A DNA stretch of 64,000 nt from Escherichia coli (GTDB lineage: Bacteria; Pseudomonadota; Gammaproteobacteria; Enterobacterales; Enterobacteriaceae): assembly GCF_016903815.1 (NCBI RefSeq), contig NZ_CP069973.1; one strand, given 5' to 3'. Positions 48,880 to 61,550 of this stretch are shown here, piece by piece. The translations under genes and the position numbers were made by a program. The notes below the pieces were generated by a model, which made no database searches, was not told the DNA's origin, and worked only from the letters and a program-made list of their open reading frames with translations. Numbering within the stretch: position 1 is the first letter of the stretch; every line of letters starts with the position of its first letter.

Positions 48880-49557
48880 TCAAAGCATAAACCGATACCC
48901 AATACCGGTTTCAGTAATGAAATGGCGGGGGCGAGCGGGATCCTGTTCCAGTTTTTGTCGCAGATGTCCCATATAAATACGCAAATAATGACTGTGTTCG
49001 ACCGCGTTTGGCCCCCACACCTGGTTAAGGAGCTGGCGCTGGGTGAGCACTTTTCCGGCATTGTTGAGCAGCACCGCCAGCAGGCGAAACTCAATTGGTG
49101 TGAGATGCACCTCTTCCTCACCGCGATGGATCACGCGGGCGGCTAAATCGACGGTAACATCGGAAAATTTCACCAGCGGATCGGGCGCAGCGGTGGCGGA
49201 GTGGCGACGTAAAGCGACGCGCAGACGGGCCTGCAATTCGCCAATGCCAAACGGCTTACTCAGGTAATCATCCGCTCCGGCATCCAGCGCGGCGATTTTG
49301 TCGCTCTCTTCGCTGCGTGCGGAAAGCACAATCACTGGCACTGCGCTCCACTGGCGCAGGTCGCGGATAAACTCAATCCCATCACCATCGGGCAGGCCGA
49401 GATCGAGAATAATCAAATCTGGCTTACGGGTAGCCGCTTCCAGCAAGCCGCGTTGCAGCGTTTCGGCCTCATAGACGCGCATCCCGTCGCCCTCCAGCGC
49501 CGTGCGCAGAAAGCGACGAATAGCCTGTTCATCTTCAACAATCAGAACGTTTGTCAC
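48880..49557 (-). CDS. kdpE: Response regulator KdpE (OmpR family, 225 aa)
   Basis: Receiver domain (Asp in LIILDLGLPDGDG) plus winged-helix output domain. Confidence 0.93.
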   Translation of the reverse strand: MTNVLIVEDEQAIRRFLRTALEGDGMRVYEAETLQRGLLEAATRKPDLIILDLGLPDGDGIEFIRDLRQWSAVPVIVLSARSEESDKIAALDAGADDYLSKPFGIGELQARLRVALRRHSATAAPDPLVKFSDVTVDLAARVIHRGEEEVHLTPIEFRLLAVLLNNAGKVLTQRQLLNQVWGPNAVEHSHYLRIYMGHLRQKLEQDPARPRHFITETGIGYRFML

Positions 49558-52238
49558 ATATCCTCATGAAATTCTTCAAGTTCAGGGGCTGTTTGCTGGG
49601 GAAGTGTAACACGAAAACAGGCACCACCTTCCGGTCGGTTGAATGCGGTAATGGTGCCGCCGTGTACATCCACTATCGCCCGACAAATTGCCAACCCAAG
49701 CCCTACACCCGGTACCGCCGACTCTTTATTCCCGCGAGCAAACTTATCAAATATCGTCTGCTCCTGGCCTGGTGGAAGACCGGGGCCGTTATCCCAGACA
49801 TCCAGTTGTAGATTTTCGCCCTCAACGTGGGCATTGATACCAATTTCGGCCTGCGCCCCCGCGTATTTCACCGCGTTCTCCAGCAGATTAATCAGCACCC
49901 GTTCAAAGAGTGGCCCGTCAACGTGGATTAAGGTCAGCGGTTCTGGCAGAGAAAGATTGATGGTCGACGATAAACCCGGTTCCAGCATTTGCAGCGCGCT
50001 GCCGACCACTTCTTCCAGCGTTAACCACTCTTTCTTCAAATTAAAGCCGCCGGACTGAATTCGTGCCATATCCAGTAGATTATTCACCAGTCGGGTGGTG
50101 TTCAGCACATGCTGACGAATCTCGCTGGCCTGGCGGGCGTGGGGCGATCCTTCGCTCGCCAGATCGAGCGTTAAGATTTCTGCCTGACCGAACAGCACCG
50201 TGAGCGGAGTGCGTAAATCATGCGAAAGCGCCGCCAGCAGGGCGTTGCGGATCTGTTCACGTTCGCTTGCCATCCGCGCCTGTTCTTCGCTGGCGGTCAG
50301 TGTCAGCCGCTCAAGGGCATTGGCGACTAACAACGTAAATGTCTCCAGCAGGCGCTGCTGTTCCGGGATCATCAACTGGCGCAGATTCCCCGGTTCCACC
50401 ACCACCAGTCCGTAGGTTTTCTCGCCGCTTTTTAGCGGCAAAATCTGGTACGGTACACCGGGTAACGTGTCGGTGCCCGCGCCCGCAGGCAGACCTTTAT
50501 CAAAACTCCACTGCGCGATGGCATCGTCCCACGGGGTCATTCCTTGCGGATGTGTTAACGGCTGCAATTTACCGTTGTCATCGGGTAACAGCACCTGACT
50601 GCGGGCATGAAACGTGGAGGCAATAAACTGTTCGCTGGTGGCGGCGATGTCCTGCGGACTGCGGCCCACCGCCAGAGCTTTCGACATTTCATATAAGTGC
50701 CGTGTGCGTTGCTCGCGGTAACGGGCTACCCGCGCCTGATAACGCACGCCCGCAGTAAGGTTCCCGATCACCAGCCCGACGGTTAACATCACCGCGAAGG
50801 TCAGCAGATATTGCACATCAGAGACGGCAAGCGTGCCGCGTGGGGCGATAAAAAAGAGATCGAAACTCACCACATTAATGACGGTGGCGACCACCGAAGG
50901 CCAGCGCCCATAAAACAGTGCCACCACCACCACGCCAAGCAGATACAGCATCACCAGGTTGGCGGCATCAAACGCCATCAGCCACTGCATGGCAATTAAG
51001 GTGATAACGGCGCATAACGCGGCGGCAACCACGCATCCCTGAATCTGTACCCGCCACTTGTCTTTAAAAGAGCGGCTATCCGGCGCGTTGTTAATCGTGC
51101 GGGCGGGTGGTTCATCAAGCGCGACCAGCACCTGATCGAGATCGGGGGCGATGCGCGCCAGTCGGTCAGCAAACGTTTCCCGACGCCACCAGCGGCGCGA
51201 GGCTGGGCGACCGAGAATAATCTTGCCGAGATTATGTTCACGGGCATAACGCACTACCGCTTTCTCTTCCGCTGGATCAGAAAGTGTTGCCGTCTCTGCG
51301 CCCAGCTCCTGCGCCAGACGTAAGGCGCTGAGAATTGCCCGACGTTTTTTCTCCGGTAAGCGATGCAGGGTAGGGGTTTCAACATACACCGCGTGCCAGA
51401 CGCTACCCAGCCGTGACGCCAGCCGCGCCGCCGCGCGGACCAGTTTCTCACTACCAGTGTTATGGCCGATGCATAAAAGGATCGCGTCGCGCGTGTGCCA
51501 GACTTTCTCTTCGCCAGGATGCCCCCGCCAGGCGCGCATTTGCTCATCTACGCGATCGGCAGTACGGCGCAGTGCCAATTCGCGCAGGGCGATCAGATTA
51601 CCTTTACGAAAAAAATGTTCAATGGCGCGTTCCGCCTGCCCGGCAATATAGACTTTACCTTCTTTCAGCCGTTGACGCAGATCGTCCGGGGGCAAGTCCA
51701 CCAGCACCACGTCGTCGGCGGCATCGAAAAAAGGATCGGGCACGGTTTCTCGTACCTGAATTCCGGTGACGCCACTGACCACATCATTCAGGCTTTCCAG
51801 ATGCTGAACGTTGACGGTAGTGAAAACATCAATGCCCGCTTCCAGCAGTTCTTCGATGTCCTGCCAGCGTTTAGGATGACGAGAACCTGGCGCATTACTG
51901 TGCGCCAGTTCGTCCATTAAGATCAGCGCCGGACGGCGGGCGAGGGCGGCATCGAGATCAAACTCGCTGATATGCCGCCCACGGTACGCCTGGCGTTTGG
52001 GCGGCAGAACAGCCAGCCCTTCCAGCATTGCGGCGGTATCTTTCCGCCCGTGGGTTTCAACCACGCCAACCACAATATCCAGCCCTTGCGCCCGCAGTCG
52101 CTGGGCCTCTGCCAGCATCGCCCAGGTCTTTCCGACGCCTGCGCAGGCACCGAAGAAAACTTTCAGCTTCCCCCGATGCGGCGCGGCAGTTTGTTCCAGC
52201 AGACGATCGGGGTCGGGACGTAAAGGTTCGTTATTCAT
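49554..52238 (-). CDS. kdpD: Sensor histidine kinase KdpD (894 aa from [11 protein letters not shown])
   Basis: N-terminal KdpD/Usp domains, four TM helices, HisKA (HDLRTPL) and HATPase_c; overlaps kdpE by 4 nt and kdpC by 8 nt. Confidence 0.92.
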
Positions 52239-54882: not shown

Positions 54883-56556
54883 TCAGGAGAGATATTCCGC
54901 CACCGGACCAAGCGCCAGGGCAGGGATAAAGGTCAGTGCGCCAACCAGCAACACGGTGCCGATTAACAGGCCAACAAACAGCGGGCCGTGCGTTGGCAGC
55001 GTGCCGGAGCTGGCGGGTTGGCTCTTTTTACTCACCAACGAACCGGCAATTGCCATCACCGGGATAATCACCCCGAAGCGACCGACAAACATGCAGAACG
55101 CCAGTAAACAGTTCCAGAATGGGGAGTTGGCGCTTAATCCGGCAAAGGCGCTGCCGTTGTTGTTAGCGGCGGACGACACGGCGTACAGCACTTCGCTAAA
55201 ACCATGCGGGCCAGGGTTGAGCATGGCGCTACGTCCGGCGTCGGTCATCATTGCCAGCGCCGCGCCCATCAGCACCAGTGTTGGAGTAACCAGAATCGCC
55301 AGTGCAGTCAGTTTCATCTCGCGTACGTCGATTTTTTTACCCAGATATTCCGGTGTACGACCAATCATCAGCCCGGCAATAAACACCGCCAGCAGAACAA
55401 ACAGCATCATGCCGTAAAGACCAGAACCGACACCGCCGAATACCACTTCACCAATTTGCATCAGCCACATCGGCACCATGCCACCGAGAGCGGTAAACGA
55501 ATCATGCATCGCAATCACCGCGCCACAGGACGCCGCCGTAGTCACGACCGCAAACAGGCTACTGACCAGCACGCCGAAACGGCTCTCTTTACCTTCCATA
55601 TTGATGCTGCTGTCCGCACCCAGCGCCAGCAGATGAGGATTACCCTGAACTTCTGCCCACATCACCACGCCTACGCAGATGACAAAAATCACTGACATCG
55701 CCCACAGCAACATGCGCCCCTGGCGGCGATCGCCCGTCACTTCACCAAAGGCAAAGCACAGCGCTGTTGGGATCAAGAAGATCGCCAGCATCTGCACGAA
55801 GTTGGTCAGTGCGGTTGGGTTTTCAAACGGATGCGACGAGTTGGCATTAAAGAAGCCACCGCCGTTAGTACCGAGCATCTTGATCGCTTCCTGAGAAGCC
55901 ACCGGACCCATGGGTAACAGCTGTTGCGCTCCTTCAACGGTATTCACCGCCTGATAGGGCAGAAAGTTTTGCAGTGCACCTTGTTGAATAAAAAACAGTG
56001 CGATCAACAACGCCACAGGGACTAGCACCCATAACGTGATGCGTAGCAGATCGACCCAGGCATTCCCGAGTGTGCTCATGCTCTGGCGGGTAAATGCACG
56101 GATGAGGGCAAAAATCACCGCAATCCCGCTGGCGGCAGAAAGAAAGTTTTGCACCGTTAAGCCCGCCATCTGGCTGAAATAGCTCAACGTGGTTTCACCG
56201 CTATAAGATTGCCAGTTGGTATTGGTGACAAAGCTGACGGCGGTATTCAGCGCCAGATCCCACGACAGCCCTGGCAACTGCTGTGGATTAAGCGGCAGAT
56301 AGTGCTGACCGAGCAACATAAAAAACAGCACCGCCAGCCCCAGCATGTTCAGGCCGAGAATGGCAGAGAGATACTGCTTCCAGTTCATCTCACTGTCAGA
56401 GACGCCAGGTAAACGAAAAAGTACGCGTTCAACACCCGCTGTACCGGGAAGAGGTATGTCGTTAATCAGCCGCGCCAGCCCGCTGCCTAAAGGACGCGCC
56501 AGCACCATTAACACCAGTAAAAACGTGGCAATCAGTAAGAACCCTTGCGCAGCCAT
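54883..56556 (-). CDS. kdpA: Potassium-transporting ATPase channel subunit KdpA (557 aa from [12 protein letters not shown])
   Basis: SKT-superfamily membrane protein; the track ORF extends 65 codons upstream across kdpF. Confidence 0.9.
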
Positions 56557-56645
56557 CAGAACGCCTCCGCATTGATCAGGGCATAAACCAGATAACCCAG
56601 TAATAAAAACACCAGCAACACGCCGGCTATCACGTCTGCACTCAC
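56556..56645 (-). CDS. kdpF: KdpF small subunit (29 aa; [29 protein letters not shown]), GTG start, stop overlapping the kdpA ATG
   Basis: Manual minus-strand translation; single hydrophobic helix; TGATG overlap with kdpA. Confidence 0.7.
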
Positions 56646-56760
56646 AGTGCACCTCCAGTGGCCTAAAAGTGATACCGGAAGGGTAGAATTCTGGCTGCAA
56701 AGATTTCGCAAAAATCTTCGGGCGGGATGTAAAAAAAGTATAAAATGGCAAAAGCCATGA
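56646..56760 (-). promoter_or_regulatory. kdpFABC promoter with expected KdpE-binding site
   Basis: Established knowledge; AT-rich region upstream of kdpF. Confidence 0.4.
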
Positions 56761-56956
56761 TTTAACTGATGGTTAGTATTAATTTAACTTTTGTGTAACT
56801 TAATTACACGATGAATGTAAATAAACCATCAATAAGCAAAAATAAGTGGTCGGATGAGTAGTAAAATTACACAAAAGGCGGTACTATTTTCATCAGATAA
56901 ACAAATTCATTTTTCCGGTGCCATTCACCGGGTAGATACAAAAGGGGGAGAAAAGT

Positions 56957-57163
56957 ATGGAACTCTACAGAGAATATCCTGCATGGCTTATCTTTTTACG
57001 CCGTACTTATGCGGTTGCAGCGGGCGTTCTGGCGCTGCCTTTCATGCTTTTCTGGAAAGACCGCGCCCGCTTTTACAGCTACCTGCACCGCGTCTGGTCG
57101 AAAACCAGCGAGAAACCGGTGTGGATGGATCAGGCAGAAAAGGCAACTGGTGATTTTTACTGA
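56957..57163 (+). CDS. ybfA: Small membrane protein YbfA (DUF2517, 68 aa)
   Basis: 68 aa with a hydrophobic core segment; conserved position upstream of rhsC. Confidence 0.75.
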
Positions 57164-57410: not shown

Positions 57411-60400
57411 ATGAGTGGAAAACCGGCGGCGCGTCAGGGCGACATGACGCAGTATGGCGGTAGCATTGTCCAGGGTTCAGCCGGGGTGCGCATCGGTGCC
57501 CCCACCGGCGTGGCCTGTTCGGTGTGCCCCGGCGGGGTGACGTCCGGCCATCCGGTCAATCCGCTGCTCGGCGCGAAGGTCCTTCCCGGAGAAACCGACC
57601 TTGCCCTGCCCGGCCCGCTGCCGTTCATCCTCTCCCGCACCTACAGCAGTTACCGGACAAAAACGCCCGCGCCGGTGGGGAGCCTCGGCCCCGGCTGGAA
57701 AATGCCTGCGGATATCCGCTTACAGCTGCGCGATAACACACTGATACTCAGTGATAACGGCGGCAGAAGCCTGTATTTTGAGCACCTGTTTCCCGGTGAG
57801 GACGGTTACAGCCGCAGCGAGTCACTCTGGCTGGTGCGCGGCGGTGTCCTGAAACTGGATGAAGGTCACCGGCTGGCCGCACTCTGGCAGGCGCTGCCGG
57901 AAGAACTCCGCTTAAGTCCGCATCGTTATCTGGCGACGAACAGTCCGCAGGGGCCGTGGTGGGTACTCGGCTGGTGTGAGCGGGTGCCGGAGGCGGATGA
58001 GGTGCTGCCTGCGCCGCTGCCGCCGTACCGGGTACTGACCGGGCTGGTGGACCGCTTCGGGCGCACACAGACGTTCCACCGTGAGGCTGGCGGCGAAATC
58101 ACCGGCGTGACGGATGGTGCCGGGCGTCACTTCCGGCTGGTACTGACCACGCAGGCGCAGCGGGCAGAAGAAGCCCGGCAGCAGGCCTCTTCCGGCGGGA
58201 CGGAACCGTCCGCTTTTCCTGATACCCTGCCGGGTTACACCGAATATGGCCGGGACAACGGCATCCGTCTGTCTGCCGTGTGGCTGACGCACGACCCGGA
58301 ATACCCGGAGAATTTACCTGCCGCGCCGCTGGTGCGCTATGGCTGGACGCCACGCGGCGAACTGGCGGCGGTGTATGACCGCAGCAATACACAGGTGCGC
58401 AGCTTTACTTACGATGATAAATACCGGGGCCGGATGGTGGCGCACCGTCACACGGGCCGGCCGGAAATCCGTTACCGTTACGACAGCGACGGGCGGGTGA
58501 CAGAACAGCTAAACCCGGCAGGCTTAAGCTACACGTATCAGTATGAGAAAGACCGCATCACCATCACCGACAGTATGGACCGCCGTGAAGTGCTGCACAC
58601 GCAGGGCGAAGGCGGGCTGAAGCGGGTGGTGAAAAAGGAACACGCGGACGGCAGCGTCACGCAGAGTCAGTTTGATGCGGTGGGCAGGCTTAAGGCACAG
58701 ACGGATGCCGCAGGCCGGACGACTGAGTACAGCCCGGATGTGGTGACGGGACTCATCACGCGCATCACCACACCGGATGGCAGGGCATCGGCATTTTACT
58801 ATAACCACCACAACCAGTTAACGTCAGCCACCGGGCCTGACGGGCTGGAAATACGCCGGGAATATGATGAATCCGGCCGTCTGATTCAGGAAACCGCACA
58901 CAACGGCGATATCACCCGCTACCGTTATGATAATCCACACAGTGACTTACCCTGCGCAACGGAAGATGCCACCGGCAGCCGGAAAACCATGACATGGAGC
59001 CGTTACGGTCAGTTGCTGACCGTCACTGACTGTTCCGGTTATGTAACCCGTTATGACCATGACCGTTTTGGTCAGGTGACGGCGGTGCACCGCGAGGAAG
59101 GGCTGAGTCAGTACCGCGCATACGACAGCCGTGGACAGTTAATTGCGGTGAAAGACACGCAGGGCCATGAAACGCGGTATGAATACAACGCCGCCGGTGA
59201 CCTGACCGCCGTCATTGCCCCGGACGGCAGCAGAAACGGGACACAGTACGATGCGTGGGGAAAGGCCATCCGTACCACACAGGGCGGTCTGACGCGCAGT
59301 ATGGAATACGATGCTGCCGGACGGGTCATCCGCCTGACCAGTGAAAACGGCAGCCACACCACCTTCCGTTACGATGTACTCGACCGGCTGATACAGGAAA
59401 CCGGCTTTGACGGCCGCACACAGCGTTATCACCACGACCTGACCGGCAAACTTATCCGCAGCGAGGATGAGGGGCTGGTCACCCACTGGCACTATGACGA
59501 AGCAGACCGCATCACACAGCGAACGGTGAATGGTGAAACCGCAGAACAGTGGCGGTACGACGAACGCGGCTGGCTGACACAAATCAGCCATCTCAGCGAA
59601 GGCCACCGGGTGACGGTGCATTACGGGTATGATGAGAAAGGCCGCCTGACCGGTGAGCGCCAGACGGTGCATCACCCGCAGACGGAAGCACTGCTCTGGC
59701 AGCATGAAACCAGACACGCTTACAACGCGCAGGGACTGGCGAACCGCTGTATACCGGACAGCCTGCCCGCCGTGGAATGGCTGACTTACGGCAGCGGCTG
59801 GCTGGCAGGCATGAAACTCGGCGACACACCGCTGGTGGATTTCACCCGCGACCGCCTGCACCGGGAAACGCTGCGCAGCTTCGGCCGTTATGAACTCACC
59901 ACCGCTTATACCTCTGCCGGGCAGTTACAGAGCCAGCACCTGAACAGCCTGCAGTATGACCGCGATTACACCTGGAACGACAACGGCGAACTCATCCGCA
60001 TCAGCAGCCCGCGCCAGACCCGGAGTTACAGCTACAGCGACACCGGCAGGCTGACCGGCGTCCACACCACGGCAGCGAACCTTGATATCCGCATCCCGTA
60101 TGCCACGGACCCGGCGGGCAACCGCCTGCCCGACCCGGAGCTGCACCCGGACAGCCCCCTCAGCGCATGGCCGGATAACCGTATCGCCCGTGACGCGCAC
60201 TATCTTTACCGGTATGACCGTCACGGCAGGCTGACGGAGAAAACCGACCTCATCCCGGAAGGGGTTATCCGCACGGATGATGAGCGGACTCACCGGTACC
60301 ATTACGACAGCCGGCACCGGCTGGTGCACTACACGCGGACACAATATGCAGAGCCGCTGGTCGAAAGTCGCTATCTTTACGACCTGCTGGGCCGCAGGGT

Positions 60401-61550
60401 GGCAAAACGGGTATGGCGGCGTGAACGGGACCTGACGGGCTGGATGTCGCTGTCATGGAAACCGGAAGTGCCCTGGTACGGCTGGGACGGCGACCGGCTG
60501 ACCACAATACAGAACGACAGAACCCGCATCCAGACGGTTTATCAGCCGGGGAGCTTCACGCCACTCATCAGAGTTGAAACTGCCACCGGTGAGCTGGCGA
60601 AAACGCAGCGCCGCAGCCTGGCGGATGCGCTTCAGCAGTCCGGCGGTGAAGACGGTGGCAGTGTGGTGTTCCCGCCGGTGCTGGTGCAGATGCTCGACCG
60701 GCTGGAAAGTGAAATCCTGGCTGACCGGGTGAGTGAGGAAAGCCGCCGCTGGCTGGCATCGTGCGGCCTGACGGTGGAGCAGATACAAAACCAGATGGAC
60801 CCGGTGTACACGCCGGCGCGAAAAATCCACCTGTACCACTGCGACCATCGCGGCCTGCCGCTGGCGCTTGTCAGCACGGAAGGGGCAACAGAATGGTGCG
60901 CAGAATACGATGAATGGGGCAACCTGCTGAATGAAGAGAACCCGCATCAGCTGCAGCAGCTCATCCGCCTGCCGGGTCAGCAGTATGATGAGGAGTCCGG
61001 CCTGTATTACAACCGCCACCGCTATTATGACCCGCTGAAGGGGCGGTATATCACTCAGGATCCGATTGGACTGAAGGGGGGATGGAATTTTTATCAGTAT
61101 CCGTTAAATCCGATCTCAGAGATAGACCCACAAGGGTTAAATCCGTTAATTCTTAGTGTTGTAGCACTGATGAGTTGCGGTTTGTTTTCATCAGGTGGTG
61201 TTATCCAAAGTGGGCAACAACGCAGAGATCAATATGGCCGTAAAGTTAATCCAGAAGCCGACAAATTAACAGATGAACATAAGTCAGGTGTAAATCCTGG
61301 TGGTAACTGTAGTCCCCAGAACCTGAGTGACTTACAAAATGAAAAAAACAGATTATGTAACCAGTCTAGAGCTTGCGCTCCTCAGATGCTGAGAAAAGAA
61401 ATATTGAGACGGTACGAGATAAATTTGGCGTGCGCTTCGGTCAGAAAGCAGATTAATAATCAGTGCTTTGGTGGTGGAGATAAGGCCCATATGGAAGAAG
61501 AGAATAAAGCATATAAAACAGCAGCTGATTGCAGTGGCTTAATAAAATGA
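57411..61550 (+). CDS. rhsC: PAAR-domain RHS-repeat polymorphic toxin (RhsC-type, 1379 aa) with a variable low-GC C-terminal toxin tip
   Basis: N-terminal PAAR-like segment ([11 protein letters not shown]...), many YD/RHS repeats ([27 protein letters not shown] and others), core-end motif PxxxxDPxGL (DPIGLKGG...EIDPQGL) at about 61080–61140, then an AT-rich Cys-rich tip of roughly 135 aa. Confidence 0.9.

Follow-up and report, generated by a model that had tools for sequence, protein, structure and literature searches.

Which codon starts kdpF, the first gene of the kdp operon, in this Escherichia coli genome, does that start depart from K-12, and is translation of kdpF coupled to that of kdpA, whose start codon it overlaps? 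These questions were raised by a first-pass annotation of a 64,000-nt stretch of contig NZ_CP069973.1 (assembly GCF_016903815.1), hereafter the window, which described a GTG start, gave ATG as the start in K-12 and proposed coupling across the shared base. The features of the locus are as in Table 1.

Table 1. Features of the kdpF-kdpA region in the window
Feature	Position	Strand	Basis or remark
kdpF CDS	56556..56645	-	29 sense codons and TGA; translation, NF011332, RefSeq annotation of identical record
GGAGG, predicted ribosome-binding site of kdpF	56652..56656	-	6 nt upstream of GTG
kdpF GTG start codon	56643..56645	-	sequence; same codon and position in K-12 MG1655
kdpF codon 4, GAC (Asp); GGC (Gly) in nearly all E. 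coli	56634..56636	-	alignments
GGAGG, predicted ribosome-binding site of kdpA, within kdpF codons Ala26-Glu27-Ala28	56564..56568	-	7 nt upstream of kdpA ATG
kdpF TGA stop	56558-56556	-	sequence
TGATG stop/start overlap of kdpF TGA and kdpA ATG, A at 56556 in common	56554..56558	-	sequence
kdpA ATG start	56556-56554	-	sequence
kdpA CDS, 557 aa and stop	54883..56556	-	TIGR00680; RefSeq annotation of identical sequence
622-codon mechanical ORF in the kdpA frame, TTG start, not a gene	54883..56751	-	crosses kdpF in another frame

The kdpF gene and its start codon in E. coli

The minus strand through the start of kdpF reads CACTGGAGGTGCACT GTG AGT GCA GAC GTG ATA GCC GGC, and translation of 56645..56556 opened with GTG at 56645-56643 and ran for 29 codons, in agreement with the first-pass annotation. 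The predicted KdpF protein scored 71.3 bits against NCBIfam NF011332 (cutoff 56) over residues 1-29 of 29, and 31.7 bits against TIGR02115 (cutoff 26.85), which placed it above the cutoffs of both family models and, for NF011332, at full length. The position of the gene was that of kdpF, first in the cluster and followed on one strand by kdpA, kdpB, kdpC, kdpD and kdpE. In addition, the KdpF chains of 25 PDB entries (e.g. 6hra_D, 5mrw_D) agreed with it in 27 of the 29 residues. Judged by homology and position, the product of kdpF is predicted to be the KdpF subunit of the potassium pump KdpFABC, which has 29 residues and a single helix. In K-12, KdpF reportedly associates with KdpABC and stabilises it, as found by Gassel et al. 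in 1999. The PDB entries give Met as residue 1, as initiation at GTG would, a deposited sequence being no proof of the start codon.

Comparison with K-12 MG1655 did not bear out an ATG start. In NC_000913.3, kdpF (b4513, YP_588443.1) lies at 728732-728821 on the complement strand. It opens with a GTG that aligns with the GTG of the window and closes with TGATG, kdpA starting from the shared A. The two loci were alike in the GTG, the GGAGG with its 6-nt spacer, the 29 codons, the TGATG and the embedded GGAGG of kdpA. They differed in two KdpF residues, G4D, which is rare, and T7A, which is common, and in the upstream regulatory region, where the window carried a few SNPs and a T-run 1 nt shorter. 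When the window was aligned with MG1655, C600, O157:H7 SS17 and one further isolate, the GGAGG, spacer, GTG and junction were invariant in all five.

The survey of complete E. coli genomes gave the same picture. A 501-nt region was found in 5423 of 5426 genomes, with kdpF and kdpA annotated under it in every row among the matches listed. With a 34-nt query, for which detection requires a 28-base identical stretch that necessarily contains the GTG, an identical stretch of at least 28 bases spanning this codon was found in 5398 of 5426 genomes. Of the 5418 records matched by a 50-nt query covering the leader, GGAGG and GTG, 5125 were exact, and two non-exact examples differed only further upstream in the leader. 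When ATG was put in place of GTG in the 50-mer, there were no exact matches, and each of the 5405 hits had an identity of 95-99%. For the junction 50-mer, 4199 of the 5416 records matched were exact, and the variant genomes that were aligned had SNPs outside TGATG (GCG/GCA at Ala28; AAT/CAT in O157).

The surveys and the K-12 alignment therefore showed that the GTG is neither a peculiarity of this strain nor a sequencing error. A change from an ATG in K-12 to GTG here, or an error at the start codon, had nothing found in its favour beyond the statement on K-12 in the first-pass annotation; it was contradicted by MG1655 itself, by the GTG of at least 5398 of the 5426 complete genomes with the exact ATG version in none, and by the GTG of 115 of 119 related species described below. 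We give this explanation practically no credence. The region is very probably the usual 5' end of kdpFABC, with GTG as the ancestral, reference-annotated start and not a change in the strain.

The kdpA frame in the window was open upstream of the kdpA ATG, and the mechanical ORF was 65 codons longer than kdpA (622 - 557), as the first-pass annotation had said. The further expectation that this extension would mislead automated annotation did not hold, since all RefSeq records inspected gave a 90-nt kdpF and kdpA from the overlapping ATG. Among them was the record that matches the window exactly across the 501-nt region. The extension was rejected as a gene, as no annotated record inspected used the TTG-start form. 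The misleading item is thus the mechanical ORF track and not the curated annotation.

Conservation of the kdpF start across species

The cross-species set was obtained by one DNA-pattern scan of a one-genome-per-species collection. KdpF residues 17-29 were back-translated into a degenerate pattern, which put no constraint on the start codon, the junction or any third position. The scan required the motif G-Y-L-x-Y-A-L-x-x-A-E-A-F, so that the sample is mainly Enterobacterales. It produced 120 loci, mostly from that order (Citrobacter, Salmonella, Enterobacter, Kosakonia, Pantoea, Erwinia, Buttiauxella, Cedecea, Serratia and others). Of these loci, 119 were analysable for the start and the junction. 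The equivalent start codon, 48 nt upstream of the match, was GTG in 115 of 119 species and ATG in three (Enterobacter cloacae DSM 26481, Erwinia oleae and Leminorella grimontii), with one locus frameshifted. A GGAGG was present upstream of the kdpF start in 110 of 119 species, with a spacer of 5-6 nt in 109 and 4 nt in one.

The frameshifted kdpF was that of Pantoea stewartii CCUG 26359 (locus L014, about 1693-1779), where one base appeared to be missing in the Leu-Leu-Gly region and the equivalent start was out of frame. Either a pseudogene or an error of assembly could account for this copy.

Initiation elsewhere in the kdpF frame was also weighed. The frame is open from a TTG at 56711, which would give a 51-aa product, and several in-frame GTG codons lie inside kdpF, codon 5 among them. 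An alternative in-frame ATG was looked for in the open reading frame list of the window and was absent between the upstream stop and the TGA; the 51-codon ORF (56556..56711) likewise had no internal Met. In 63 of 109 species there was no start codon upstream of the equivalent GTG, and in 39 of those 63 the upstream in-frame stop was only 1-8 codons away. The equivalent codon is thus the most upstream in-frame start in those 63 species, which argues against a longer product. Against a shorter one, the conserved GGAGG stands 5-6 nt before the GTG and is too far from codon 5, and initiation at an internal codon would leave a shorter transmembrane helix, the only one in the protein. Finally, the curated 29-position family model matched end to end. 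Initiation at another codon is very improbable, and the GTG in Table 1 would be the codon used by the ribosome for kdpF.

The start codon was also compared with other sites of the gene. Its first base was G in 115 loci and A in 3, while two-fold synonymous sites were divided at Tyr18 (TAT 90, TAC 28), Asn25 (AAT 80, AAC 27) and Phe13 (TTC 54, TTT 43). In these counts, the GTG looks maintained and not drifting when set against the more variable two-fold sites. One reading is that the GTG is actively kept by selection and forms, together with the invariant embedded GGAGG and the conserved one-base overlap, a tuned unit that would set the output of KdpF, a small hydrophobic peptide, relative to that of KdpA. 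It was suggested because the GTG was kept in 115 of 119 species although a single G-to-A change gives ATG, and because the two-fold sites vary. No study of selection on the kdpF GTG or of such a unit was found in the literature, and we regard the reading as unlikely and put it forward only tentatively.

The kdpF-kdpA junction and translational coupling

The minus strand across the junction reads AAT GCG GAG GCG TTC TGA TGG CTG CGC AAG GG, and the one-base overlap of TGA and ATG described by the first-pass annotation was present, with TGATG identical in K-12. KdpA matched TIGR00680 with 1001.9 bits over residues 1-557. Among the 119 species the junction was TGATG in 110, TAATG in 8 and non-overlapping in 1.

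The GGAGG of kdpA is embedded in the last codons of kdpF. Ala26 was GCG and Glu27 was GAG in 120 of 120 loci, with third positions free in the search pattern, and the codon of Ala28, the third base of which lies outside the GGAGG, was GCG in 41, GCA in 37, GCC in 25 and GCT in 17. The invariance of GCG GAG suggests a dual constraint, from the protein and from a putative ribosome-binding site. Other kdpF codons were skewed as well (Ala22 GCC in 114 of 120; Leu19 and Leu23 CTG in about 90%). Part of the invariance may be explained by genome relatedness or codon preference, and invariance alone is no proof of such a constraint.

Stop/start overlaps of the type TGATG, TAATG and ATGA occur in bacterial operons and are linked to translational coupling. 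The kdpF-kdpA junction resembles these in that the kdpF stop and the kdpA ATG overlap by one base, an arrangement conserved across species, and it has the mark of a coupled pair in a stop that overlaps the next start (TGATG here; TGATG or TAATG in 118 of 119 species). It differs in that kdpA owns a strong predicted ribosome-binding site, and coupling here is read from the sequence. In a strictly coupled pair the downstream gene is without an accessible ribosome-binding site of its own, whereas kdpA has a predicted one in its GGAGG, which was the same in all 120 loci. Translational coupling of kdpF and kdpA is plausible and not necessarily obligatory. It need not be the sole route to kdpA translation, because kdpA has a strong GGAGG inside kdpF.

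Under the proposed mechanism, ribosomes would start kdpF at the GTG, served by the GGAGG with its 6-nt spacer. A ribosome that ends kdpF at the TGA would then sit on the kdpA ATG and could restart there, while free 30S subunits would also load on kdpA directly through the embedded GGAGG. Termination and reinitiation may in this way contribute to kdpA translation. The literature found on the kdpF start codon and on kdpF-kdpA coupling mentioned KdpF only in passing and held no test of either.

The overlap could instead be mere compact packing, with kdpA translated essentially independently from its own GGAGG. The consensus GGAGG of kdpA at an optimal spacing of 7 nt, invariant over 120 loci, is in line with this, and the gaps of 22 nt between kdpA and kdpB and 8 nt between kdpB and kdpC indicate that coupling is no general design of the operon. 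Retention of the overlap in 118 of 119 species counts against packing in that it is consistent with some benefit, but it is also consistent with the constraint of two coding sequences. Independent translation of this kind is possible, and we are inclined to doubt it. A contribution of coupling alongside direct loading is the reading kept here.

The other junctions of the cluster were of different forms. An overlap of 8 nt was found between kdpC and kdpD (ATGAATAA, 52231-52238), and one of 4 nt (GTGA) between kdpD and kdpE at 49554-49557 on the minus strand. As kdpE too starts with GTG, the kdp cluster has a GTG-started gene at each end.

The G4D allele and the surroundings of kdpF

The predicted KdpF of the window aligned over residues 1-29 with the KdpF of the KdpFABC structures (5MRW, 6HRA/6HRB, 7BH1/7BH2, 7NNL and others), from which it differed in Asp for Gly at residue 4 and Ala for Thr at residue 7. 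T7A was found to be common, O157:H7 being one of many E. coli that have it. Of 5426 complete E. coli genomes, just 2 contained a 50-mer with G4D: CP103521 (strain 2779) and CP103762 (strain 5283). The exact KdpF protein of the window was present in 46 public contigs, all named E. coli, compared with at least 1000 contigs for each of the two common alleles. Among the 119 species, residue 4 was Gly in 110, Ala in 6, and Arg, Leu and Glu in one each, with no Asp. By these comparisons G4D is a rare but real lineage allele and the only strain-specific feature of kdpF in the window, and position 4 of KdpF tolerates some variation, one Glu included. That G4D could alter the seating of KdpF in the complex is a separate suggestion, as tentative and unlikely as that of the tuned unit.

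The 5' leader of kdpF and its first codons were predicted to fold into a hairpin in which the GGAGG is paired to a U-rich CACUUUUAG stretch lying upstream of it (56646-56680, minus strand). The fold energy was ordinary (z = -1.19), 26 of 200 shuffles folding as well, and the upstream bases were poorly conserved across species; the hairpin was rejected as evidence of regulation. A palindrome, GCACT-GTG-AGTGC, which in E. coli places the start codon in its loop, was likewise set aside; it is not retained in Enterobacter, Pantoea and others (GGATT, GGACT or GTTGCT upstream). In 56500-57000, where chance would give 0.7 terminator-like hairpins, two were found, of which one (56627-56611) falls within kdpF, and both were treated as chance matches.

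No sigma-70-like promoter was found in a consensus scan of 56500-57000. Since this promoter requires the activator KdpE, a consensus scan says little at kdp. The A/T-rich stretch at 56700-56760 is presumably the KdpE-binding region of the kdp promoter. On the minus strand of this stretch, the window differed from K-12, C600 and O157 in a T-run one base shorter (TTTT instead of TTTTT before TATAC) and in two SNPs (ACACCCC to ACATCCC and CGCAGA to CGAAGA). Further along, ybfA was located at 56957-57163 on the plus strand. Just beyond it, next to the kdp operon, a 1379-aa ORF was found at 57411-61550 on the plus strand; the identical RefSeq record names it an RHS element core protein.

Overall, the kdpF-kdpA arrangement of the window is already known, annotated and widely conserved, and it is the norm of the species. 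The main value of the analysis lies in the correction of a false premise: kdpF of K-12 too starts with GTG, and there is nothing unusual in the start codon of this strain. As by-products, it provided a picture of a highly conserved Enterobacterales site with its GTG, two GGAGG and one-base overlap, and a rare G4D allele that marks the lineage of the strain.
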